Origin: an uncultured Thermodesulfobacteriaceae bacterium | GTDB lineage: Bacteria; Desulfobacterota; Dissulfuribacteria; Dissulfuribacterales; UBA3076 | Assembly (NCBI GenBank): GCA_964585405.1 | Contig: CAZPDU010000027.1 | Location: 1-40,708, forward strand | DNA: 40,708 nucleotides | Direction: 5' to 3' | Shown: positions 279 through 11,952 of the stretch, one piece after another | How positions within the stretch are numbered: the first letter of the stretch is position 1 | Layout: each line of letters starts with the position of its first letter | Position numbers and translations under genes: made by a program | Notes under the pieces: model-generated | What the model was told of the DNA's origin: nothing | Seen by the model: only the letters and a program-made list of their open reading frames with translations | Databases searched by the model: none

Positions 279-3200
279 ATGATCATGAACGAAAACGTGC
301 TTAATCAACTGGCTGAACTCTGTGGAATAGAGCCGGAATATCACGATATCTGGGGGAGAATTCATAAGGTCTCCAATAAGACCAAATCAGATCTGTTGAG
401 AGCCATGGGCCTGCCAATGGATGACGAAGCCTCTATAAGTTCTGCCCTGGCCGGGGAAAAGGCCGTTTTCTGGCAGCGCTTACTGGATCCTGTTCTGGTT
501 GTGAAGGAGAAGGAGTCTCCGTTCCTGGTCACTATCCGGCTCCCTGAAAAGGATACTGAGAATCGATTTGAATGGTTAATAAGGGAAGAGGGCGGTAATT
601 ATCACAAGGATACTTTTCTGCCTAAAGAGCTGGAAGTGAAAGGGTACGGCGAAACACAGGGGGAAACCTATATCCAGTGCATACTCTCCGTTCCGGTAAC
701 GCCTGGTCCGGGCTATCATCAACTGGAGATACGTCAGATCGATAACGGGAGCGAGTTGCCGAGGGTTATGCGACTCATAGTCGCTCCAGAGACTTGCTAC
801 ATGCCTTTTGGCCTTCAAGAGGGACGTGTCTGGGGACCCGCGGTACAACTCTATGCCCTCCGTTCCAGGCGTAACTGGGGGATAGGAGATTTGACGGACC
901 TTAAGACCCTTGTTTCCTGTTGCGCTGACATGGGTGCCGGTATTCTGGGTATTAATCCATTGCATGCTCTGTTTATCGAGGACCCTGAATATGCGAGTCC
1001 CTACAGCCCGTCGAGCAGGCTTTTTATAAATCTCCTTTATCTGGACATAGAGGCCATAGCAGATTTTCCGGAGTGCGACGAAGCACTGGATATGGTTAAG
1101 AATCCGGAATTTCAGGCCAGACTTGCCTCTTTCAGAGAAGGCGATCTGGTGGATTATAGTGAGGTGGCCGCAGCTAAACGCCCTGTTATGGAAGCACTTT
1201 ACAGGCATTTCCGCACGCACCATATGGGGCCAGAGGATGAAAGGTGTATGGCCTTCAGATCCTTTCAGGACCAGAGGGGTGAAGAGTTATACCGCTACGG
1301 ACTTTTTGAGGCCCTGGAAGAACATTTGTATCAAAAGACCCCTGGTATTCACGGCTGGCCAGGCTGGCCGGAAGACTACCGTAACCCTGATTCTCCTGCG
1401 GTCGCTGAATTTTCCGGGACACATCAGGAACGGATTGAATTTTTTCAATACCTTCAATGGCAAGCAGATCTGCAACTTGGTGCAGCAGGGCGTCAGTCTA
1501 TGGAACTTGGTCTTAAGGTGGGGCTCTATGAAGATCTGGCAGTCGGCGTTGATTCGGCAGGGCAAGAGACCTGGATGCATCAGAATCTATATGCCCTTGG
1601 CGTCCGCATTGGGGCCCCTCCTGACGATTTTAATCTCAACGGTCAGGACTGGGGGCTACCTCCCTTAATCCCGAACAGGCTTGTAGAGGAGGCGTATGCA
1701 CCATTTATAGCGACCCTCAGGGCCAATATGCGCTACGCAGGGGCACTAAGAATTGACCATGTGATGGGTCTCATGAGGCTCTTCTGGGTGCCGCCGGGGG
1801 GAAAACCGGCTGAAGGTGCTTATGTCAGTTATGCCTTTGATGACCTCCTGGGGATTCTGGCATTGGAAAGCCAGAGAAACAGGTGCCTCGTGATAGGTGA
1901 AGACCTAGGTACAGTGACGGATGATGTGCGTAGAGCACTTAAATCCATGAAGGTCCTGTCCTGCCGGCTCTTTTATTTCGAAAAGGAAGCAAATGGCAGA
2001 TTCAAGGCGCCTGATGATTATCCCGAACAGGCCCTGGTGGCTGTAAGCACCCACGATCTTCCCACTCTTTCAGGGTACTGGCGGGGATGGGATCTGGCGC
2101 TCAGAAACGAGCTGGGCCTGTTTCCGGAAGAATCTTTGCGGGAGGCCCAGATTGTGGGCAGGGCTCAGGATCGGGCTCGCCTCCTTATCGCCCTGGAACG
2201 TCAGGATATGCTTCCGAAAGGTATAGGAGTGGATCCGGCCTCAGTTCCAGAGATGACCACTGAGTTAGTGAATGCAGTTTATCTCTATCTGGCTCGTACA
2301 GTTTCCAAAATCTTGATGTTCCAGCTTGAAGATGTCTTTGCTCAACTGGAACAGGTCAATCTTCCCGGTACGATGGAGCAGTATCCAAACTGGCGCAGAA
2401 AGCTTCCTCTTGATCTTGAAGTCTTAATGGAAGATGAGCGCATTCAATCCCTTACCCGGATAATGCGGCAGGAAAGAGGGGGGGCACGGGCCTGGCCTGC
2501 TGCACCTCCAGAAAAAGGGCCGAGAATTGCGGGTGCGTGGATTCCCTCTGCGACTTACCGCCTTCAGTTCAACAGGGATTTTACATTTACTCAGGCAGCG
2601 GATCTTGTCCCTTATCTCAGACAACTGGGTATAAGCCATTGCTATTCCTCTCCTTATCTGAAGGCCCGTCCTGGCAGTCTTCATGGTTATGACATCATAG
2701 ACCACAGTGCACTCAATCCCGAGATTGGGACATGGGAAGACTTCGTTCATTTCATTGATACACTTCACTATCACGGAATGGGTCAGATTCTTGACCTGGT
2801 GCCCAATCATATGGGTGTTGGGTGCGATAACTACTGGTGGGTTGATGTCCTGGAAAACGGACAGGCTTCTCCTTATGCGGCCTTTTTTGATATCGACTGG
2901 TGGCCTGTCAAGGAGGAATTGCGGGGCAAGGTTCTTTTGCCGATACTGGAAGATCACTACGGCGCAGTGTTAGAGGCCGGTCTTCTCAGGCTGACCTTTG
3001 ATGACCAAAAAGGCGAATTCGGAATCTCTTATTACGATAACCTCTTTCCCATAGATCCGGCTACATATTCCTTTGTACTGGGTCATGGAACTGAGAGGCT
3101 GGAGGCCCGTCTGGAGGCTCAAGTCCAATGCTTTTCTGAATTTCAAAGTCTGGTTGCCGCCTTTGAAAACCTGCCCGGCAGTGAGGACAAGGAAAGAATA

Positions 3201-5465
3201 GAGGCCCGCCTTCGGGATAAGGAAGTCCATAAGCGACGGCTGGCAGGACTCTGCAAGGAATATTCGCAGATAAAAAGTTTCATTCAGGAAAATATTGTCT
3301 TGTTTAATGGCACAGAATCAGATGCCGCCAGTTTCCATCTTTTACACCGCCTGCTGGAAGCTCAGGCCTACCGGTTCGCCCACTGGCGAGTAGCCTCAGA
3401 TGAGATCAACTACCGCCGTTTCTTTGATATCAATGATCTTGCCGGACTCAAGACGGAAAATCCCAGAGTCTTTGAAGCAACCCACAGCTTTGTGCTGGAT
3501 CTTATAGACCAGGGTAAGATTGATGGACTGCGCATAGATCATCCTGATGGTCTTTATGATCCTGCTGAATACTACCGAAGGCTCAATGACGGAGTTCGAT
3601 GGCAAGTTATGGCGAGAGGCAAGAGAGAAAGCGGGCCGGATTCCAATAATAGTGCTACGGCTCCGGATCTCATATACCTGGTGGTGGAGAAGATTCTTGC
3701 CAACTATGAAAGGCTTCGAGGGGACTGGCAGGTACACGGAACGACAGGATACGATTTCGCCAATCTGGTGGGCGGTCTCTTTGTGAATACTCAAACGGAA
3801 AAGGAGATGTACAGGATCTATACGGAGTTCCTGGGCAATAGACTTGATTTTGAGGAATTGCTTTACCAGCGCAAAAAACTCATCATGAAAGTAGCCCTTG
3901 CCAGTGAATTAAATGTTCTTGCCAGTGAACTCAATCGCATCTCCGAATCAGACTGCCACACCAGAGATTTTACATTGAATAGTTTGAGGGATGCGCTTTC
4001 AGAAGTGGTGGCATGTTTTCCGGTGTACCGTACTTATGTCACCAGGGAGCGGATTACTTCGGAGGATCGCCGTTACGTGGATTGGGCCATAGCTCAGGCC
4101 CGAAAAAGGAGCCGGGCAGCTGACACGAATATATATGATTTTATCAGAGATGTCCTTCTCATGGATATAAGTGAGGACAAGAGCCATGAGTATAGAAAGG
4201 CTGTAAATGACTTCACTATGAAGTTCCAGCAATATTCCGGTCCTGTAATGGCCAAGGGTCTTGAAGACACCGCCTTTTACACCTACAATCTTTTAATATC
4301 ACTCAATGAAGTGGGCGGGGAGCCCCGCCGTTTTGGAGTTTCCGTCTCTGCCTTTCACCACCTGAATCAGGAGAGGGCGGCAAGCTGGCCTCATTCCATG
4401 CTGAATACGTCAACCCATGACAGTAAGAGGAGCGAAGACGTCCGGGCCAGGATAAGCGTACTATCTGAAATTCCAGACGAGTGGGAGGCAGCTGTAACCA
4501 AATGGGGTCTGCTCAGCCGCTTGAGCAAGCCAGCCTCTGACAGGGGAACAACCCGGTTCGCGAACGACGAGTATGCCCTGTACCAGACTCTGATCGGTGC
4601 TTGGCCTCTGGGGCAGCTTGATCAAAAAGGTTTTGCCTCTTTCCGCAGTCGCATTGAGCAATATATGATCAAGGCAGTAAGAGAGGCAAAGATCCTCAGC
4701 AGCTGGATCAATCCCGATCTTGAATATGAAGGTGCACTTCTCAAGTTCCTCCAGGGGCTTATAACCAGCGAGGGCGATAACCAGTTTCTCAAGGAGTTCC
4801 TTCCGTTTCAGCAGCGAGTTGTCTGGTTCGGCATGTTAAACAGCCTATCTCAGACCTTGCTTAAATTAACCGTTCCCGGAGTTCCAGACATATATCAGGG
4901 TAATGAGGTTTGGTCGTTCAGACTAGTGGATCCGGACAATAGAAGTCCGGTAGATTTTGGCCGCACAAGGGAGATTTTTCGAGATCTTGCCGCCTTTCTG
5001 TCCGTGCCGGACGAGCTGTTGCCAGGACGCGTGCGGGAACTTATGGAAGAAATGGAGGACGGAAGGATCAAGCTGTATCTTACCTGGAGGACCCTGTCTC
5101 TGCGGTGGGAGCATCAGGGGCTGTTTCAATACGGCACATATCTGCCTTTGTCTGTTAATGGTACAAAGGCAGAACACATATGCGCTTTTGCAAGAAGATT
5201 CAAAGACAGCACAGCTATCGTGGCAGTTCCAAGGCTCTATGTCGGACTTTGCGGTTTTTATCCGAAAGCGAAGCCTTTAGGTTCCGGAATATGGTCAGAC
5301 ACTGGGGTGAACGCCGCTTCTGAGCAATTTGATCAAAGGGCTTATCGAAATATCTTTACAGGAGAATGTATGGTTCCGGAAATGCACAGCGGCAACCTCT
5401 GTTTTCCAGCGGCACAACTGTTTTCCAATTTTCCTGTAGCCTTGTTAACCGATGCCCCGGCTTAG
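279..5465 (+). CDS. fusion protein: 4-alpha-glucanotransferase (amylomaltase, GH77, MalQ-like) joined to malto-oligosyltrehalose synthase (GH13, TreY-like)
   Basis: One uninterrupted 1728-codon ORF. The N-terminal ~735 aa carry GH77 motifs (INPLHAL, YSPSSRLF, LRIDHVMGL, IGEDLGTV, STHDLPT). A Pro/Ala-rich linker follows (~aa 736-752, about nt 2484-2534). The C-terminal ~975 aa carry TreY motifs (YRLQFN..FTF, HGYDIIDH, DLVPNH, GLRIDHPDGL, VVEKIL, STHDSKRSEDVR). Confidence 0.9.
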   Translation: MIMNENVLNQLAELCGIEPEYHDIWGRIHKVSNKTKSDLLRAMGLPMDDEASISSALAGEKAVFWQRLLDPVLVVKEKESPFLVTIRLPEKDTENRFEWLIREEGGNYHKDTFLPKELEVKGYGETQGETYIQCILSVPVTPGPGYHQLEIRQIDNGSELPRVMRLIVAPETCYMPFGLQEGRVWGPAVQLYALRSRRNWGIGDLTDLKTLVSCCADMGAGILGINPLHALFIEDPEYASPYSPSSRLFINLLYLDIEAIADFPECDEALDMVKNPEFQARLASFREGDLVDYSEVAAAKRPVMEALYRHFRTHHMGPEDERCMAFRSFQDQRGEELYRYGLFEALEEHLYQKTPGIHGWPGWPEDYRNPDSPAVAEFSGTHQERIEFFQYLQWQADLQLGAAGRQSMELGLKVGLYEDLAVGVDSAGQETWMHQNLYALGVRIGAPPDDFNLNGQDWGLPPLIPNRLVEEAYAPFIATLRANMRYAGALRIDHVMGLMRLFWVPPGGKPAEGAYVSYAFDDLLGILALESQRNRCLVIGEDLGTVTDDVRRALKSMKVLSCRLFYFEKEANGRFKAPDDYPEQALVAVSTHDLPTLSGYWRGWDLALRNELGLFPEESLREAQIVGRAQDRARLLIALERQDMLPKGIGVDPASVPEMTTELVNAVYLYLARTVSKILMFQLEDVFAQLEQVNLPGTMEQYPNWRRKLPLDLEVLMEDERIQSLTRIMRQERGGARAWPAAPPEKGPRIAGAWIPSATYRLQFNRDFTFTQAADLVPYLRQLGISHCYSSPYLKARPGSLHGYDIIDHSALNPEIGTWEDFVHFIDTLHYHGMGQILDLVPNHMGVGCDNYWWVDVLENGQASPYAAFFDIDWWPVKEELRGKVLLPILEDHYGAVLEAGLLRLTFDDQKGEFGISYYDNLFPIDPATYSFVLGHGTERLEARLEAQVQCFSEFQSLVAAFENLPGSEDKERIEARLRDKEVHKRRLAGLCKEYSQIKSFIQENIVLFNGTESDAASFHLLHRLLEAQAYRFAHWRVASDEINYRRFFDINDLAGLKTENPRVFEATHSFVLDLIDQGKIDGLRIDHPDGLYDPAEYYRRLNDGVRWQVMARGKRESGPDSNNSATAPDLIYLVVEKILANYERLRGDWQVHGTTGYDFANLVGGLFVNTQTEKEMYRIYTEFLGNRLDFEELLYQRKKLIMKVALASELNVLASELNRISESDCHTRDFTLNSLRDALSEVVACFPVYRTYVTRERITSEDRRYVDWAIAQARKRSRAADTNIYDFIRDVLLMDISEDKSHEYRKAVNDFTMKFQQYSGPVMAKGLEDTAFYTYNLLISLNEVGGEPRRFGVSVSAFHHLNQERAASWPHSMLNTSTHDSKRSEDVRARISVLSEIPDEWEAAVTKWGLLSRLSKPASDRGTTRFANDEYALYQTLIGAWPLGQLDQKGFASFRSRIEQYMIKAVREAKILSSWINPDLEYEGALLKFLQGLITSEGDNQFLKEFLPFQQRVVWFGMLNSLSQTLLKLTVPGVPDIYQGNEVWSFRLVDPDNRSPVDFGRTREIFRDLAAFLSVPDELLPGRVRELMEEMEDGRIKLYLTWRTLSLRWEHQGLFQYGTYLPLSVNGTKAEHICAFARRFKDSTAIVAVPRLYVGLCGFYPKAKPLGSGIWSDTGVNAASEQFDQRAYRNIFTGECMVPEMHSGNLCFPAAQLFSNFPVALLTDAPA

Positions 5466-5816
5466 GATCAACCGCATCCGATCCTATGGCATTTAAAGCC
5501 GATATCTGATTGGAAACGAAATGTCTATGTTCAGATTCTTGTCAGTAACAAAAAAGTTTGAAAAATCAGGTTATTATCTCCGATAATTTATAATTTTTCA
5601 GATTCTGACCGAAGGCCAGGCAAGAATGAATTCTGCAACTGGTAAAAATAATTATTGATACCTTTCTCGTAATAAAGTAAAAGGCCGAGGATTCATTTTA
5701 GAATTCGATCTATCTCATAATTTTTCAACACAAAAATTAAGAGGAGTGGAGCTTTTTCGAATTTTTCCCAATTGACCCGAAACCGAAACAGTTTTTTTTA
5801 GGAGGATTTATGGAAA

Positions 5817-6206
5817 ATGAAGAGCCAGATATACGGATACGGTCCGCATTTAATGCTCGATTTGAGTGATTGTAATTCGACAATACTGAACGACCTTGAT
5901 GCCTGTTTCAGACTACTGAACGAGTTGCCCGAAAGGATAGGGATGACAAAAATAACACAGCCTTATGTGTTTCGATACTGCGGGGTGGTACCTGAAGACG
6001 AGGGTATTACCGGGGTGACCATAATAGCCGAGAGTCATATATCCCTTCATACTTATCCGAAAAAGAAGTTCGTATTTGTGGACATCTTTTCCTGTAAACC
6101 ATTCGATGTGGAAAGGGCCAAAGACCATGTTATCCAGTTTTTCCAGTCAAAATCTCCATCTGTTCATATAAAGGAAAGGGGGGCGGCCTTTCCCTCGGTT
6201 GTGTGA
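5817..6206 (+). CDS. class-1 S-adenosylmethionine-decarboxylase-fold pyruvoyl proenzyme (SpeH-like); the substrate may be arginine rather than AdoMet
   Basis: 129 aa with the self-processing signature IIAESHISLHTYP. The expected Glu72/Ser73 cleavage puts the Ser codon at 6033-6035. Size and N-terminus (GPHLMLDLSDC) are typical of small bacterial/archaeal AdoMetDC. AGGAGG lies at 5800-5805. Confidence 0.8.
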   Translation: MKSQIYGYGPHLMLDLSDCNSTILNDLDACFRLLNELPERIGMTKITQPYVFRYCGVVPEDEGITGVTIIAESHISLHTYPKKKFVFVDIFSCKPFDVERAKDHVIQFFQSKSPSVHIKERGAAFPSVV

Positions 6207-6233
6207 TTTTGGGTTGCCAGAGGGGATCCCTTA

Positions 6234-7106
6234 ATGGATATTAAGGTCGAACCCGGCGCTTACGGTGCACTTCCTGAAGCGTACTGCCGTTACAGTACAG
6301 CATCCATTGCAATTCTTCCCGTACCTTATGACGGGACATCAACATGGATGAAGGGTGCAGACCGCGGTCCGCGGGCCTTGCTGGAGGCATCTGCCAATCT
6401 GGAACTATACGACATTGAAACCGATTCCGAGGTTTTTAAACACGGGATTGTGACACTGGAACCCGTCCTGTGTCCTGAGGAGCCGGGGGCAATGGTTTCT
6501 GCAGCATATGAACGTGCAAGGCATATTTTAGAGGAAGGGAAATTCATTGTCGGCATCGGTGGAGAACATACGGTCTCTGTTGGTTTAGTGCAGGCCGCGG
6601 CGAATAGATTTCACGATCTCTCCGTGCTCCAATTCGATGCCCACGCGGATACCCGGAATGAGTATAAGGGAAGCAGGTACAATCACGCCTGTGTCATGTC
6701 AAGGATAGGTGAGATCTGCCCATATGTTCAGGCAGGGATTCGAAGCATGGATATATCCGAGCTGAAAACACTGAATCGTGACCGGACGTTTTTTTCTCAT
6801 GAGATACTCAGGGGGCCGGATGTGACGTCCAGAGCAATTAAGGCATTGACAGAAAACGTATATATAACAATTGATCTGGACGTACTGGACCCTTCCATTA
6901 TGCCATCTACCGGTACTCCTGAACCTGGAGGATTGGACTGGTACACTTTGCTTTATTTCATAGAATCAGTGGTAAGGGAAAAAAACGTAATTGGAATAGA
7001 TACAACCGAGTTGCTTCCCAATCCTGACAACAGAGCACCGGATTTTTTGGCCGCGAAATTGATCTACAGGATATTGAGCATGATCTTCTTAAAGAGGGAT
7101 AAATAG
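6234..7106 (+). CDS. speB: agmatinase (ureohydrolase/arginase family)
   Basis: 290 aa with the ureohydrolase metal-binding motifs GGEHTVS, QFDAHADT and TIDLDVLDPS. The N-terminal segment is agmatinase-like. SD-like AGAGGGGA lies upstream of the ATG. Confidence 0.85.
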   Translation: MDIKVEPGAYGALPEAYCRYSTASIAILPVPYDGTSTWMKGADRGPRALLEASANLELYDIETDSEVFKHGIVTLEPVLCPEEPGAMVSAAYERARHILEEGKFIVGIGGEHTVSVGLVQAAANRFHDLSVLQFDAHADTRNEYKGSRYNHACVMSRIGEICPYVQAGIRSMDISELKTLNRDRTFFSHEILRGPDVTSRAIKALTENVYITIDLDVLDPSIMPSTGTPEPGGLDWYTLLYFIESVVREKNVIGIDTTELLPNPDNRAPDFLAAKLIYRILSMIFLKRDK

Positions 7107-8131
7107 TGATGGAGAAAAAGGATTTCTTGCGCAAACCGATTGAGCATATAGACATCAAGACCTTTGATGCCAGAGCCGTCATAGATGGTTATGCCTCCAT
7201 GGCCTTCCAGGCCCGGAATCTCGCAGTAGCATCGAATATTTATAACCGGATGCTGGCAGACCGCGATTGCAAGATCATTCTTACGCTTGCTGGTTCTCTA
7301 TTCAGTGCTGGTCTGAAGCATGTTGTGGTGGATATGATTGACAACAACATGGTGGATGCCATCGTTTCCACGGGCGCCATCATTGTGGATCAGGATTTTT
7401 TTGAGGCCCTGGGTTTCAGACATTATATGGGCACCCAATTCGTTGACGATGCTTTGTTGCGTGAACTTGGCATTGACAGGATTTACGACACATTTATCGA
7501 CGAAGATGAACTGAGGATCTGTGACATGACTATAGAGGAAATCGCCGGCACCTTGTCTCCGAGGCCCTATTCCTCCAGAGAAATCATTCATGTCATGGGG
7601 GCCTATCTGGAAGAGAAAGGGTTAAAGGTTGAAAGGTCGGTTGTTTACTCTGCCTATAAAAAGGGAGTGCCGATTTTCGTGCCTGCATTTTCAGATTGCT
7701 CGGCTGGTTTTGGATTGATTTACCATCAATGGCACAAAAAAGATGCGCACGTCACTGTTGATTCTGTTCGGGATTTTCGTGAACTCACAGAGATTAAAAT
7801 GGCCGTAAAAGACACGGGCATTATTATGATAGGCGGCGGTGTACCCAAAAATTTCACCCAGGATGTCGTGGTAGCCACAGATATACTGGGCAGGGAAAGG
7901 CCTATGCATAAATATGCTATTCAGCTCACCGTAGCCGATGAACGGGACGGCGGACTATCGGGGTCCACTCTGAAGGAAGCCTGCTCCTGGGGCAAAGTGG
8001 ACATGAAATATGAACAGATGGTATTGGGTGAGGCCACAATTACGCTGCCTTTGCTTATGAGTGATGCCTACCACCGGGGTGTTTGGAAGAAAAGGGCACC
8101 GGGGAATCTTTCGGCGCTCTTCAATTTATGA
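7106..8131 (+). CDS. deoxyhypusine synthase family protein (bacterial DHS-like; possible homospermidine-synthase-type enzyme)
   Basis: 341 aa with DHS-family motifs (TLAGSLFSAGL, STGA, GGGVPKNF). The catalytic-lysine context DGGLSGSTLKEACSWGK is present. The start (GTG 7106 or ATG 7109) overlaps or abuts the speB stop at 7104-7106, which suggests translational coupling. Confidence 0.8.
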   Translation: MMEKKDFLRKPIEHIDIKTFDARAVIDGYASMAFQARNLAVASNIYNRMLADRDCKIILTLAGSLFSAGLKHVVVDMIDNNMVDAIVSTGAIIVDQDFFEALGFRHYMGTQFVDDALLRELGIDRIYDTFIDEDELRICDMTIEEIAGTLSPRPYSSREIIHVMGAYLEEKGLKVERSVVYSAYKKGVPIFVPAFSDCSAGFGLIYHQWHKKDAHVTVDSVRDFRELTEIKMAVKDTGIIMIGGGVPKNFTQDVVVATDILGRERPMHKYAIQLTVADERDGGLSGSTLKEACSWGKVDMKYEQMVLGEATITLPLLMSDAYHRGVWKKRAPGNLSALFNL

Positions 8132-8157
8132 AAAGCACCGACTAAGCTAACCATATG

Positions 8158-8224
8158 GAAGCTGATGCTCTAAGATCTGAAAATCCCTGCAGAGGAGATC
8201 ATGAAATTTCAGTATCAGCTTTTC
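8158..8224. terminator. long imperfect hairpin between convergent genes; possible bidirectional terminator
   Basis: AAGCTGAT (8159-8166) pairs with ATCAGCTT (8214-8221). An inner CTGAAA (8177-8182) pairs with TTTCAG (8207-8212). TTTC follows. It lies between the DHS-like stop (8131) and the GAF-ANTAR stop (8280). Confidence 0.35.
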
Positions 8225-8279
8225 AATAAGTTCGAAAAATAAATAAGAGATTATCTTTTTGCCAGCATTATTGCATATT

Positions 8280-8993
8280 TTATTTTAATTCTTCTGCAAG
8301 CAGAACTGCCTCTGCTACCTGGCGCATTGATTTACGGGAGTCCATACTACGTTTTTGAATCCAGCGAAAGGCCTCATCCACTTCCATTTTCTGTCTGCGT
8401 ATAAGGACCTCTTTGGCACGCTCCACCAGTTTGCGCGTCTCCAGCTCCTCACTGATCACCTTGGTTTTTACCATGAGTTCGGTGTTGAGGATTGCGACTG
8501 CCGCCTGATTTGCAACCGTTGTAATGAGATAAACTTCAGTATCAGTAAATTCGTGAGGTTCTGAGGTAAAACAGTTCAGTACACCTATTACCTTCTCATC
8601 CTTTACTTGAAGCGGCACGCTGACCATAGATATCAGGCCGAGCTTTTTGGCCATTTCCTTTTCCTTGAACCGAGGCTCTTTTGACACATCCCTGATGATA
8701 AGTGGCTGATTGTGTGTGGCCACAAAGCCGACCACTCCCTCATCCAGAGATAGAGAACGGTCCTTCAGATAGTCAGAGGCTATGGCCTGCGTGGCCTTCA
8801 GCCGGATCTTTCTGGGATTTGCGGTTTCATCAATAAGCCATAATGAACAGATCTCAACACCTGTTACCTTGGCCGTTACCATTACGATGAGTTTCAGAAT
8901 ATCTTCAAGATACTGATCGGAAGTGATGGCCTGGCTTATATCCATCAGGGCCCTCATGTATTTTTCGTAGGTTTCTGGTCTGTTTTCTTCCAT
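8280..8993 (-). CDS. GAF domain plus ANTAR domain RNA-binding antitermination regulator
   Basis: 237 aa. The N-terminal ~150 aa are GAF-like (DISQAITS...ILKLIV...CSLWL...). The C-terminal ~55 aa match the ANTAR pattern (ETRKLVERAKEVLIRRQKMEVDEAFRWIQKRSMDSRKSMRQVAEAVL). Confidence 0.8.
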   Translation of the reverse strand: MEENRPETYEKYMRALMDISQAITSDQYLEDILKLIVMVTAKVTGVEICSLWLIDETANPRKIRLKATQAIASDYLKDRSLSLDEGVVGFVATHNQPLIIRDVSKEPRFKEKEMAKKLGLISMVSVPLQVKDEKVIGVLNCFTSEPHEFTDTEVYLITTVANQAAVAILNTELMVKTKVISEELETRKLVERAKEVLIRRQKMEVDEAFRWIQKRSMDSRKSMRQVAEAVLLAEELK

Positions 8994-9528
8994 TTATTAT
9001 GTGCCTGATTCCATTTCCGGAATATGCTAAAAAACAGGTTGATTCTGGTGTTGACCTCCAAACTGGGTCAGATTCAAGATAATACTAAAGATTCTCCTGT
9101 GACTCAATCACTCCATCTATCAGTATCAAGAAAAAATATTCGACTTATGCCTAATTGATTACAGTTGATATAATGTTGTTTGAAAGGCGGTATCAGTTAA
9201 GCAGGAAAGTAAAACGCAAGTGATAAGTTCACGCAGTAATTTTGCGCTAAGGGTAACCTGGAACCTCAGTAGTAATTTTCACCCCACAATTTCTAAAGTA
9301 TTTTTTTACCATATCAGGTAAATTAAACAGGTTAAACTTTATCTGTCATAATTACTTTAACAGTATTCGTTGTTGACAATTCTTGGTTTTTGAATTGACA
9401 ATCAGTCTGGTGCACTATAAACATAACATACAGGTAAATCCCATGATGCATCGCTAAAATATTGCTGGCATAATTGACATCTATAGATGTTTTTATTCCA
9501 TAAAACCCTTAAAGAGGAGGAGAAGAAG

Positions 9529-10005
9529 ATGATGAAAAAATGGAGCATTGTAGTTGTGTCTTGTATCATCATGATCAGCATGGTCAGTGTTGCGTCCGCC
9601 AACACCGTTCGAGAGGATTGTGGATGCGGTTTAGGCGCTATTGCTATCGGTGAAAAGGAAGGCGTCTTATGGAAACTGCTTGGCACATTTCTGAATGGGC
9701 TCTCCGGCAACCAGACCTTCGGCATGAGCAGCGGTACGTCAGATTGCGGAAAAGATCAATGGATTGCCAAGTATGACAAAATGAATATTTTTGTTGCCGA
9801 TAACATGGATATTTTGGCCATCGATATTGCTCAAGGCCAAGGCGAATCTTTAGATGCCTTAGCTGAAATTGCGGAAATTCCGATTGGTGAAAGGCCATCT
9901 CTGTATGCTGCCTTGCAGAGCAATTTCGATTCAATCTATCCCACAGCCCAGGTTTCTCACACCGATGTTGTAAAGGAAATTGCTAAAATTATACAGCCCA
10001 GCTAA
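9529..10005 (+). CDS. secreted DUF3015-like protein
   Basis: I prefer the ATG at 9529 over the track start at 9487 because AGGAGG at 9516-9521 lies 7 nt upstream. It has a signal peptide (MMKKWSIVVVSCIIMISMVSVASA). The CGCGLGA...GLSGNQTFGMSSGTSDC pattern matches my memory of the DUF3015 family and needs an HMM check. Confidence 0.6.
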   Translation: MMKKWSIVVVSCIIMISMVSVASANTVREDCGCGLGAIAIGEKEGVLWKLLGTFLNGLSGNQTFGMSSGTSDCGKDQWIAKYDKMNIFVADNMDILAIDIAQGQGESLDALAEIAEIPIGERPSLYAALQSNFDSIYPTAQVSHTDVVKEIAKIIQPS

Positions 10006-10011
10006 ACCTTC

Positions 10012-11952
10012 TTGCCGGTCAATCATAAGGATACAAAAAAGAGATACACAGTTTTTGCCCTTCGTGTATCTCTTTTTTGTAAGCTGGTTCTTCTATCAGC
10101 GCATGTAGCCTGTCCGGTCGCTTTCGCCGACCGACAGGAGGTGGCAGATCTGATCTCTATTGCCCAAGACAAAGGGCTCTTCAGAGATCGTTACTGGCAT
10201 ATTCTGATGCATTATGAAAAGACGCTTTTCGGTGTTAATAGTAACATCGATGACCCCTCTTTTTTTCTAGCACCTGACGGAAAAACAAATCCCCAATCCG
10301 AACTGGAAGCCACCATTTCCGTCCTGTTCCAAGAAGATGATAAAGCGGCAGAGCCCTATGTATGCAGGTTTTACGGCCGTTTTATGTGGCTTAAGCAAGC
10401 CCTGATGGTTAACTCCGAAAGGTATGCAAACCGAATGTGCGCAGAGATAGACAACATTTTGCCTGTATCCGCAACTCTCGTTTTCCCTACCTATTATATG
10501 AACAACCCGGCATCAATGTTTGGCCATACCCTGCTGACCATCAGTACTGAATATAAAAACAGACGGCTGGCATACGCGGTAAACTATGCGGCACAGGCCG
10601 ACAACACCGTGGACGGCCTTTCCTTTGCCGTAAACGGCTTATTCGGTCTGTACAAGGGTTACTATTCTGTGGAGCCGTATTATAAGAAGATTCAGGAGTA
10701 TGGAGATATTCACCACCGTGATATCTGGGAGTATACCCTTAACCTCACCCCTGAGGAATTGAAGTGGCTAATCCATCATGTCAAGGAGCTAAACGGAGTC
10801 TACACGGACTATTTTTTCTTTGACGAAAACTGCTCTTTCAATCTTCTTTTCCTTATTGAAGCGGCCAGACCCTCGGTAGACCTCGTTTCCCAATTTAAGG
10901 GTCCTTTTGTATTTCCATTGGATACCATAAAAGCAATTAAAAGCGCCGGCCTGATTATGGATGAAACATTTCGACCTTCAAAAGTAACACGCATCCGGCA
11001 TCTAATTGAGTCGCTAGATGATCCGGCCATAGACAGCGCCACAGAAATCATCAGGGGCCGGATTTCACCAATGGATATTAGTGTTACTTCCGGCTCTCAT
11101 CCACCGGATCAGAAGGCGAAGGTCCTTGATTTAGCTGCCGAACAGCTTCAATATCTCTACGTTAAAAAGATGATTGACAAAAAGACTTACCAGGAGCGTT
11201 TCCTGGAAACGTTGAGGGCTCGAAGCAGGCTGGGGATTATGAGTGCCGAAAATGCCAAAAACATTCCTATTCCACCACGGCCAGAAAGAGGTCATGATTC
11301 CAAGCGGATCAGTCTGGCTGGGGGATCGCACGATGGCAACGCGTTTTGTGAATTACGTTTTCGCCCAGCTTTTACTGATCTTCTTGACATGGATTATATT
11401 CATCAGCAGGGAGCCCAGATCGAATTTGGCGACGCCAGGCTACGCTATTTTTTTTCAAACCATCGATTTCAATTACAGCAACTCGATATAATCGATATTA
11501 TTTCCATATCGGCAAGGGACGCATTTTTTAAGCCGCTGTCATGGAAGGTGGATACCGGCTTTCACAGGAAACCCATAGACAACAAGGAAGGGGCGCTTTT
11601 TTACCGGCTCAACACGGGTACTGGCTTGGCTATCGACTATCCGTTTTTGGGCTTGTCCTATGCCATGGTCACAGGCGAAGCGGATTTCAGCGGGGCACTG
11701 AAAGAAAATTTTGCTCTGGGACCGGGCTTTATATGCGGTATGGTTAAAAAGGTAGCTCCTTTTCTAAAGAGTCACTTGTATGGGGAGATAAAATGGTTTA
11801 TGGCCGGCGATTCCCATACAGAGAGCGCGATAGCCTTTTCTAATAACTTGAAAGTGTCGAAAAACAACCATTTTTCTTTGGAATTGAAATGGGAACACGT
11901 TAATCATTGGGACAGCATGGAAGCCTCAGGCGTGTGGCACTTCTTTTTTTAA
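10012..11952 (+). CDS. DUF4105-like (Lnb N-terminal periplasmic domain) envelope protein with a probable beta-rich C-terminal half
   Basis: 646 codons from TTG 10012. A signal-peptide-like N-terminus ends in AFA-D. RYWHILMHYEKTLFG...IDDPSFFLAPDGKTNPQSELEAT is characteristic of DUF4105 proteins as I remember them. The start is uncertain because the hairpin at 10035-10079 lies inside the first 23 codons. Confidence 0.6.
   Translation: MPVNHKDTKKRYTVFALRVSLFCKLVLLSAHVACPVAFADRQEVADLISIAQDKGLFRDRYWHILMHYEKTLFGVNSNIDDPSFFLAPDGKTNPQSELEATISVLFQEDDKAAEPYVCRFYGRFMWLKQALMVNSERYANRMCAEIDNILPVSATLVFPTYYMNNPASMFGHTLLTISTEYKNRRLAYAVNYAAQADNTVDGLSFAVNGLFGLYKGYYSVEPYYKKIQEYGDIHHRDIWEYTLNLTPEELKWLIHHVKELNGVYTDYFFFDENCSFNLLFLIEAARPSVDLVSQFKGPFVFPLDTIKAIKSAGLIMDETFRPSKVTRIRHLIESLDDPAIDSATEIIRGRISPMDISVTSGSHPPDQKAKVLDLAAEQLQYLYVKKMIDKKTYQERFLETLRARSRLGIMSAENAKNIPIPPRPERGHDSKRISLAGGSHDGNAFCELRFRPAFTDLLDMDYIHQQGAQIEFGDARLRYFFSNHRFQLQQLDIIDIISISARDAFFKPLSWKVDTGFHRKPIDNKEGALFYRLNTGTGLAIDYPFLGLSYAMVTGEADFSGALKENFALGPGFICGMVKKVAPFLKSHLYGEIKWFMAGDSHTESAIAFSNNLKVSKNNHFSLELKWEHVNHWDSMEASGVWHFFF
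10035..10079 (+). terminator. perfect 15-bp hairpin with a T-run (terminator/attenuator-like) just after the DUF3015-like gene
   Basis: AAAAAAGAGATACAC (10035-10049) pairs perfectly with GTGTATCTCTTTTTT (10064-10078) around a 14-nt loop. The 3' arm ends in six Ts. Confidence 0.65.

Follow-up and report, generated by a model that had tools for sequence, protein, structure and literature searches.

A speDA-speB-speY operon predicted to direct agmatine-dependent homospermidine synthesis in an uncultured Thermodesulfobacteriaceae bacterium

SpeD homologs that occur without a spermidine synthase partner have been surveyed by Li et al. (JBC 2023, PMC10407285), and clusters of a speD homolog with speB and speY were described in Ca. 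Marinimicrobia, Capsulimonas, Solirubrobacter, DPANN and marine group II archaea (PMC10407285). The cluster-encoded SpeD homologs that were tested did not restore spermidine synthesis; the purified proteins decarboxylate L-arginine only, lack S-adenosylmethionine decarboxylase (AdoMetDC), ornithine and lysine activity, and were named SpeDA (PMC10407285). Three or four emergences of SpeDA have been published. Following work on Thermus thermophilus, seven SpeY enzymes were produced in E. coli, including a T. thermophilus control, and all coupled two agmatines to N1,N9-bis(guanidino)homospermidine (G44G or “diagmatine”), and homospermidine was made only when a SpeB was present (PMC13625781, JBC 2026). 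Two purified SpeY-linked SpeBs hydrolyzed G44G without detectable agmatine activity (PMC13625781). DUH enzymes are defined as G44G-specific and inactive on agmatine (PMC13625781), a specificity for which no sequence marker has been published. The authors’ conclusion is that SpeY depends on agmatine, of which an active agmatinase would deprive it (PMC13625781). Here, a cluster of this type is described at positions 5817–8131 of contig CAZPDU010000027.1 from an uncultured Thermodesulfobacteriaceae bacterium; the whole 40,708-nt stretch that was analyzed is called the window.

The cluster is a real, intact and conserved operon of three co-directional genes:

5817..6206, plus strand: speDA, 129 aa, a class 1b AdoMetDC-fold pyruvoyl proenzyme and predicted L-arginine decarboxylase (PF02675, 95 bits)
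6234..7106, plus strand: speB-type ureohydrolase gene, 290 aa (TIGR01230 agmatinase, 220.4 bits; PF00491, 220 bits)
7106..8131, plus strand: speY, a deoxyhypusine synthase homolog, 341 aa (PF01916 DS, 331 bits; NF002699, 564.4 bits)

The gap between speDA and speB is 27 nt long (6207–6233), while the TAG stop codon of speB (7104–7106) overlaps the GTG start of speY at 7106 by 1 nt. Translation of speY could equally well begin at an in-frame ATG at 7109, with a 2-nt gap after speB; the good Shine-Dalgarno sequence AAGAGGGA at 7091–7098 fits either start. The open reading frame coordinates thus agree with the first-pass annotation of this DNA, which had also recognized a small SpeH-like proenzyme with an intact Glu-Ser cleavage site, an agmatinase and a deoxyhypusine synthase (DHS) family enzyme retaining the lysine of its SWGK motif. 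All three identifications were borne out, and the catalytic residues are intact in every protein of the cluster. That annotation treated the arrangement as unusual, yet the combination of a speD homolog with speB and speY is an already described type of cluster (PMC10407285, PMC13625781).

With good confidence, we regard the cluster as an operon for agmatine-dependent homospermidine synthesis from arginine. The 129-aa proenzyme would cleave itself between E72 and S73, generating an N-terminal pyruvoyl group, and the mature enzyme would convert L-arginine to agmatine. The NAD-dependent SpeY, via K297, would then take the aminobutyl-type moiety from one agmatine and attach it to another, yielding G44G and ammonia. 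Finally, the SpeB-type Mn ureohydrolase would strip both guanidino groups as urea, leaving sym-homospermidine. Putrescine would not be an obligatory intermediate of this route.

The third gene product matches NF002699, the NCBIfam equivalog named for G44G synthase activity, over nearly its full length (residues 5–339 of 341) with 564.4 bits against a cut-off of 500, and it stays below the cut-offs of all DHS equivalogs and of NF001980, the “homospermidine biosynthesis protein” model. It is on account of this pattern of matches that the third gene is assigned as speY. Residues S294-W-G-K297 align with the SWGK motif of solved archaeal DHS structures, in which K297 corresponds to the catalytic lysine. 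The context is likewise that of a SpeY: the protein is bacterial, no eIF5A was found in the genome, and speDA and speB lie directly upstream. Formation of G44G from two agmatines is therefore the predicted reaction, a step proposed because of the equivalog-level match and the published enzymology of homologs.

The second gene product exceeds the cut-off of the TIGR01230 agmatinase equivalog (220.4 against 174.3 bits) and carries the motifs that hold the binuclear Mn ligands, namely GGEH at 109–112, DAHAD at 135–139 and DLDVLD at 214–219. By analogy with characterized homologs, it is predicted to hydrolyze G44G to homospermidine; this step is considered safe because every SpeB homolog tested in publications can hydrolyze G44G. 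A different sequence of events had been put forward in the first-pass annotation, according to which the agmatinase makes putrescine from agmatine and the DHS homolog condenses putrescine to homospermidine. The gene order, with decarboxylase, agmatinase and DHS homolog following each other, would suit such a route, as would the match of SpeB to the agmatinase equivalog. Furthermore, SpeB orthologs with 72–75% identity are encoded in speDA-speB pairs that have no speY next to them and would be expected to act on agmatine there, and for this reason the SpeB of the window may still hydrolyze agmatine. Against this stand the match of the third protein to the G44G synthase model together with its failure to reach the DHS and NF001980 thresholds, and the finding that all bacterial SpeY enzymes tested used agmatine and gave no homospermidine without a ureohydrolase (PMC13625781). 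In addition, an active agmatinase would take away the agmatine on which SpeY depends (PMC13625781). Passage through putrescine is thus improbable; of the earlier proposal, which led from arginine via agmatine and putrescine to homospermidine, the end product is retained, whereas the place of putrescine is not, since the SpeY enzymes tested use agmatine (PMC13625781).

The 129-aa SpeD homolog was aligned to the AdoMetDCs of T. maritima and A. aeolicus. Its predicted self-cleavage site lies between E72 and S73, and S73, H78 and C93 align with S63, H68 and C83 of the T. maritima enzyme; a GITG motif is also present. The protein accordingly combines a class 1b fold with the four residues (Gly, Ser, His and Cys) that all functional SpeD homologs share. 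A difference concerns K82, which stands where the HTWPE motif has its Glu. This Glu is kept in the T. maritima and A. aeolicus enzymes, in published fusion proteins within their AdoMetDC domains and in the copies of the sister families of the same order, and all bona fide AdoMetDCs that could be compared have it; in the clade of the window’s protein the position is occupied by Lys, Arg or Tyr. The replacement is an empirical contrast between sequences and not a mechanistic argument. The subclade also shares a 5-residue insertion ahead of its GI(T/S)G motif, which alters the region of the proline preceding the GxxG motif. A proline that is invariant in genuine AdoMetDC and lost in SpeDA was marked “gamma” in Fig. 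8 of the published survey (PMC10407285). In a tree of SpeD homologs whose members are labeled by gene neighborhood, the clade of the window’s protein forms a separate subclade of the speB-linked group.

Members of the same fold have also been recruited as ornithine decarboxylases. These SpeDC proteins have four diagnostic residues, a Gln and a Thr close to the pyruvoyl serine, a Phe that follows the His and a Tyr that precedes the Asp; the characterized SpeDC domains of the published Fig. S5 read QLIETS...HF...(A/V)Y(I/L)D. The first-pass annotation had allowed for arginine or ornithine as the substrate, and ornithine could be argued for on the grounds that SpeDC has the same fold and is widespread, with one member in a cable bacterium. 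None of the diagnostic residues is shared by the protein studied here, however, which reads IIAESHISLHTYP...VFVD and, around the pyruvoyl site, IIAESH...HTYP...VFVD. Moreover, the SpeDC-like sequence of a relative (L081) falls on a very long separate branch, and neither SpeB nor SpeY would have a substrate if putrescine were made from ornithine. An ornithine decarboxylase is thus unlikely because the published signature is absent, and we consider this identity for the 129-aa protein very improbable. The arginine half of the earlier suggestion is upheld both by the literature and by the position of the protein as the sole candidate source of agmatine.

The latter point follows from an inventory of polyamine genes in the genome, a 2.61-Mb assembly of 333 contigs that is 90% complete. 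AdoMet_dc, arginase-fold and DS genes are present once each, all of them inside the cluster, and neither a second arginase fold nor a second DS gene was found in this 90%-complete assembly. No canonical speA, PvlArgDC or aspartate aminotransferase (AAT)-fold decarboxylase scored above cut-off in it; the sole alanine-racemase-fold decarboxylase is lysA (526 bits), located beside dapF. Searches of the assembly for aguA, an HSS-type domain and eIF5A were equally negative, as was that for a canonical speE, which would be the partner of an AdoMetDC. The absence of speE and of a canonical arginine decarboxylase, noted earlier for the cluster, hence extends to the rest of the assembly, and the proposed genome check for speA, speE and hss returned no canonical copy of any of them. 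The only Spermine_synth domain in the genome belongs to an atypical protein that scores 62–106 bits against speE cut-offs of 250–472:

Contig C221 (L002:574–2700), minus strand: gene for a 708-aa protein with a central Spermine_synth domain, far below all speE cut-offs

This protein is conserved across the genus, including at least 12 genus-mates without any SpeD homolog, and is for that reason not regarded as a SpeD partner. Likewise, the two cluster-bearing genus-mates G011 and G012 (96–97% complete) yielded neither an arginine decarboxylase of the speA, PvlArgDC or AAT-fold type nor a canonical speE. In all three cluster-bearing genomes (G000, the window’s own assembly, G011 and G012), the SpeD homolog is therefore found without a canonical spermidine synthase and is the only candidate source of agmatine. 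Taken together with the literature, this context makes it probable that the 129-aa protein is an arginine decarboxylase.

Apart from the SpeB orthologs outside speY clusters, several observations weigh against this reading. The SpeD homolog scores 71.4 bits with TIGR03330, the AdoMetDC equivalog, and thus misses the cut-off of 75.65 by a small margin; its close relatives score 69.9–77.8, one of them (77.8) above the cut-off. P81 of the HTYP motif, corresponding to the Pro of HTWP, is retained. The tree comprises only relatives labeled by neighborhood, without the biochemically characterized SpeDA proteins, and gene absences are not proven by an assembly that is 90% complete. Finally, in one genome with speDA-speB only, no DS gene was found. 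The TIGR03330 score had been considered as a discriminator between arginine decarboxylase and AdoMetDC, the speB-linked copies of the sister families scoring 83–89 bits, and was dropped as the gap is too small to decide.

Alternatively, the 129-aa protein could be a genuine AdoMetDC. Agmatine would then come from an unassembled or unrecognized decarboxylase, which the incomplete assembly leaves room for, and decarboxylated AdoMet would pass to the 708-aa SpeE-domain protein or to another acceptor. The near-threshold TIGR03330 score and the retention of all processing residues and of the HTxP proline agree with such an activity, as does the 47–50% identity to a SpeD homolog of the sister families, the only one there that is catalytically intact, since these families carry canonical speE. 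On the other hand, canonical speE was not found in the window’s genome, in G011 and G012, or in two genomes with the closest homologs, and the 708-aa protein is present in genus-mates that have no SpeD homolog. A genuine AdoMetDC would also leave SpeY without a source of agmatine, in three independent assemblies (90–97% complete) that all lack another arginine decarboxylase, and would have to function with the Glu of HTWPE replaced by Lys. We therefore judge this alternative unlikely, and arginine decarboxylation remains the preferred activity of the 129-aa protein.

The sister families of the order present a pattern of their own, outside the window. All of them carry two SpeD homologs. Copy 1 (loci L010–L018 and L057–L062), the nearest vertical cousin of the window’s SpeD homolog, is intact, lies beside an agmatinase gene in every locus examined and, where checked, is located downstream of a PuuR-like regulator gene. 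Copy 2 (L063–L080) has its pyruvoyl Ser and catalytic Cys replaced and is found directly upstream of canonical speE in most genomes. The sister-family genomes, one of which is closed, yielded neither speA nor PvlArgDC nor an AAT-fold decarboxylase. The one exception among the arginine and ornithine decarboxylase types searched is a SpeDC-like homolog in G029, where a third SpeD homolog (G029:C134, L081) shows the published SpeDC signature. The pairing of an intact with a dead SpeD resembles the AdoMetDC prozyme arrangement of trypanosomatids, for which a literature search returned no bacterial counterpart. The sister-family arrangement may be prozyme-like or dual-substrate: it would fit a single pyruvoyl subunit that acts on AdoMet as well as on arginine, with a prozyme-like dead partner perhaps serving as the switch. 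In that case, the window’s copy would be the descendant specialized for arginine alone, taken up into a mobile speDA-speB-speY cassette. It is conceivable, if rather doubtful, that the SpeD homolog of the window represents a further emergence of arginine decarboxylase from AdoMetDC, one that is speB-linked and marked by the 5-residue insertion and the change of the HTWPE Glu to Lys or Arg.

The distribution of the cluster was surveyed in 41 related genomes. It was found in 3 of the 18 genomes of the genus, namely the window’s genome, G011 and G012 (the metagenome-assembled genome (MAG) “Deltaproteobacteria bacterium M55B156”), and nowhere else among the 41. The three proteins are 91, 89 and 92% identical to those of the window in G011 and 100, 91 and 96% identical in G012. 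Neither an AdoMet_dc gene nor a SpeY-type DS gene was detected in the 15 other genus-mates or in the three family genomes of other genera, one of the latter giving a sub-threshold DS match of 20.8 bits. The cluster recurs in two additional MAGs, HyVt-14 and C2.bin.20, and its gene order is preserved on a distant JGI contig, where the three proteins show 73, 76 and 85% identity. Two other contigs contain speDA-speB only. One belongs to the genome without a DS gene mentioned above, a Desulfobacterales MAG (GCA_040769985.1) with a SpeB 75% identical to that of the window, in which canonical speE was likewise not found. In the other genome, a divergent DS gene lies at another locus and the search for canonical speE was negative.

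Outside the genus, the closest SpeD homologs (70–88% identity) occur in MAGs labeled Desulfobacterales, Desulfobacteraceae, Ca. Desulfacyla and Anaerolineae, while those of the sister families in the same order reach only 47–50%. Since the closest relatives are found in MAGs labeled Desulfobacterales and Anaerolineae, the three-gene cassette was probably transferred horizontally into, or within, a small part of the genus. A cassette-like horizontal spread of speY modules has been proposed (Li et al. 2026, PMC13625781). The DNA of 3500–10500 was searched against 17 genus-mates and four loci were inspected, revealing the flanking genes in other neighborhoods or at contig ends. With the flanks rearranged in this way, no empty site for the cluster was definable among the 17 genus-mates, and gain and loss are not rigorously separable.

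The operon is preceded by a region that contains one conserved element:

5466..5816, plus strand: upstream intergenic or leader region, with a Shine-Dalgarno sequence AGGAGG at 5800–5805 and a conserved block at about 5644–5688

In an alignment of four cluster-bearing genomes, the block of about 45 nt at 5644–5688 is near-invariant and its surroundings are less conserved. It shows no clean sigma-70 spacing and may be an operator or leader element; promoter-like sites are located at 5539–5587. A leader of the riboswitch or ANTAR type ahead of speDA was considered and rejected, as an Rfam search of 5300–9500 returned no family at E ≤ 1. Directly upstream, positions 279–5465 of the window encode a 1728-aa fusion of a MalQ-type 4-alpha-glucanotransferase (GH77) with an alpha-amylase-family domain, which is 83% conserved in one genus-mate. 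On the other side, a GAF-ANTAR regulator gene (8280–8993, minus strand) is convergent with speY. In cluster-free genus-mates this gene (85–90% identity) is flanked by unrelated genes for proteins of 1066 and 520 aa, and given these unrelated neighborhoods it is not considered to be tied to the polyamine operon.

The cluster is an ordinary, uncharacterized member of a known pathway and by itself raises no new question. It adds one more lineage to the published agmatine- and SpeY-dependent route to homospermidine, an uncultured group in which the assemblies of close genus-mates bear the title “Deltaproteobacteria bacterium”, one with a HyVt isolate code. Its patchy, cassette-like spread, with 3 of 18 genomes in the genus and the closest relatives in other orders and phyla, provides a clean example of the prediction of Li et al. 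(2026). For annotation, it follows that the label “S-adenosylmethionine decarboxylase” in these MAGs is no evidence for spermidine synthesis, just as “deoxyhypusine synthase” is no evidence for hypusination.

Among known systems, the eukaryotic deoxyhypusine synthase shares its fold and catalytic lysine with the SpeY of the window but acts on spermidine and eIF5A, which are both unavailable in this genome. Bacterial homospermidine synthase (HSS) leads to the same end product as the proposed route, yet is built on another fold and requires putrescine, and the genome search for it was negative. The arginine decarboxylase of Crenarchaeota (Sulfolobus solfataricus) is a parallel in that a class 1b AdoMetDC fold was recruited for arginine. 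In Crenarchaeota, however, a closely related genuine AdoMetDC exists alongside and the pathway is an aminopropyl one, whereas the genome studied here has a single copy and no speE, and the product is predicted to feed SpeY. Thermus thermophilus likewise uses SpeY to form G44G (“caldomycin”) and a SpeB homolog to convert it to homospermidine, and the SpeY of the window passes the equivalog named for this activity. Its agmatine, in contrast, is supplied by a pyridoxal phosphate-dependent arginine decarboxylase of the alanine racemase fold, while a pyruvoyl enzyme of the AdoMetDC fold is the only candidate here. The published speDA-speB-speY clusters, known from a Ca. Marinimicrobia bacterium, Capsulimonas corticalis, Solirubrobacter sp., Ca. 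Woesearchaeota and marine group II archaea, combine the same three families without a speE partner. A difference is that the SpeD homolog of the window belongs to an uncharacterized subclade from MAGs labeled Deltaproteobacteria, Desulfobacterales and Anaerolineae; the predicted product of its cluster, homospermidine made via agmatine, is the same as that of the published speDA-speB-speY clusters (PMC10407285, PMC13625781).

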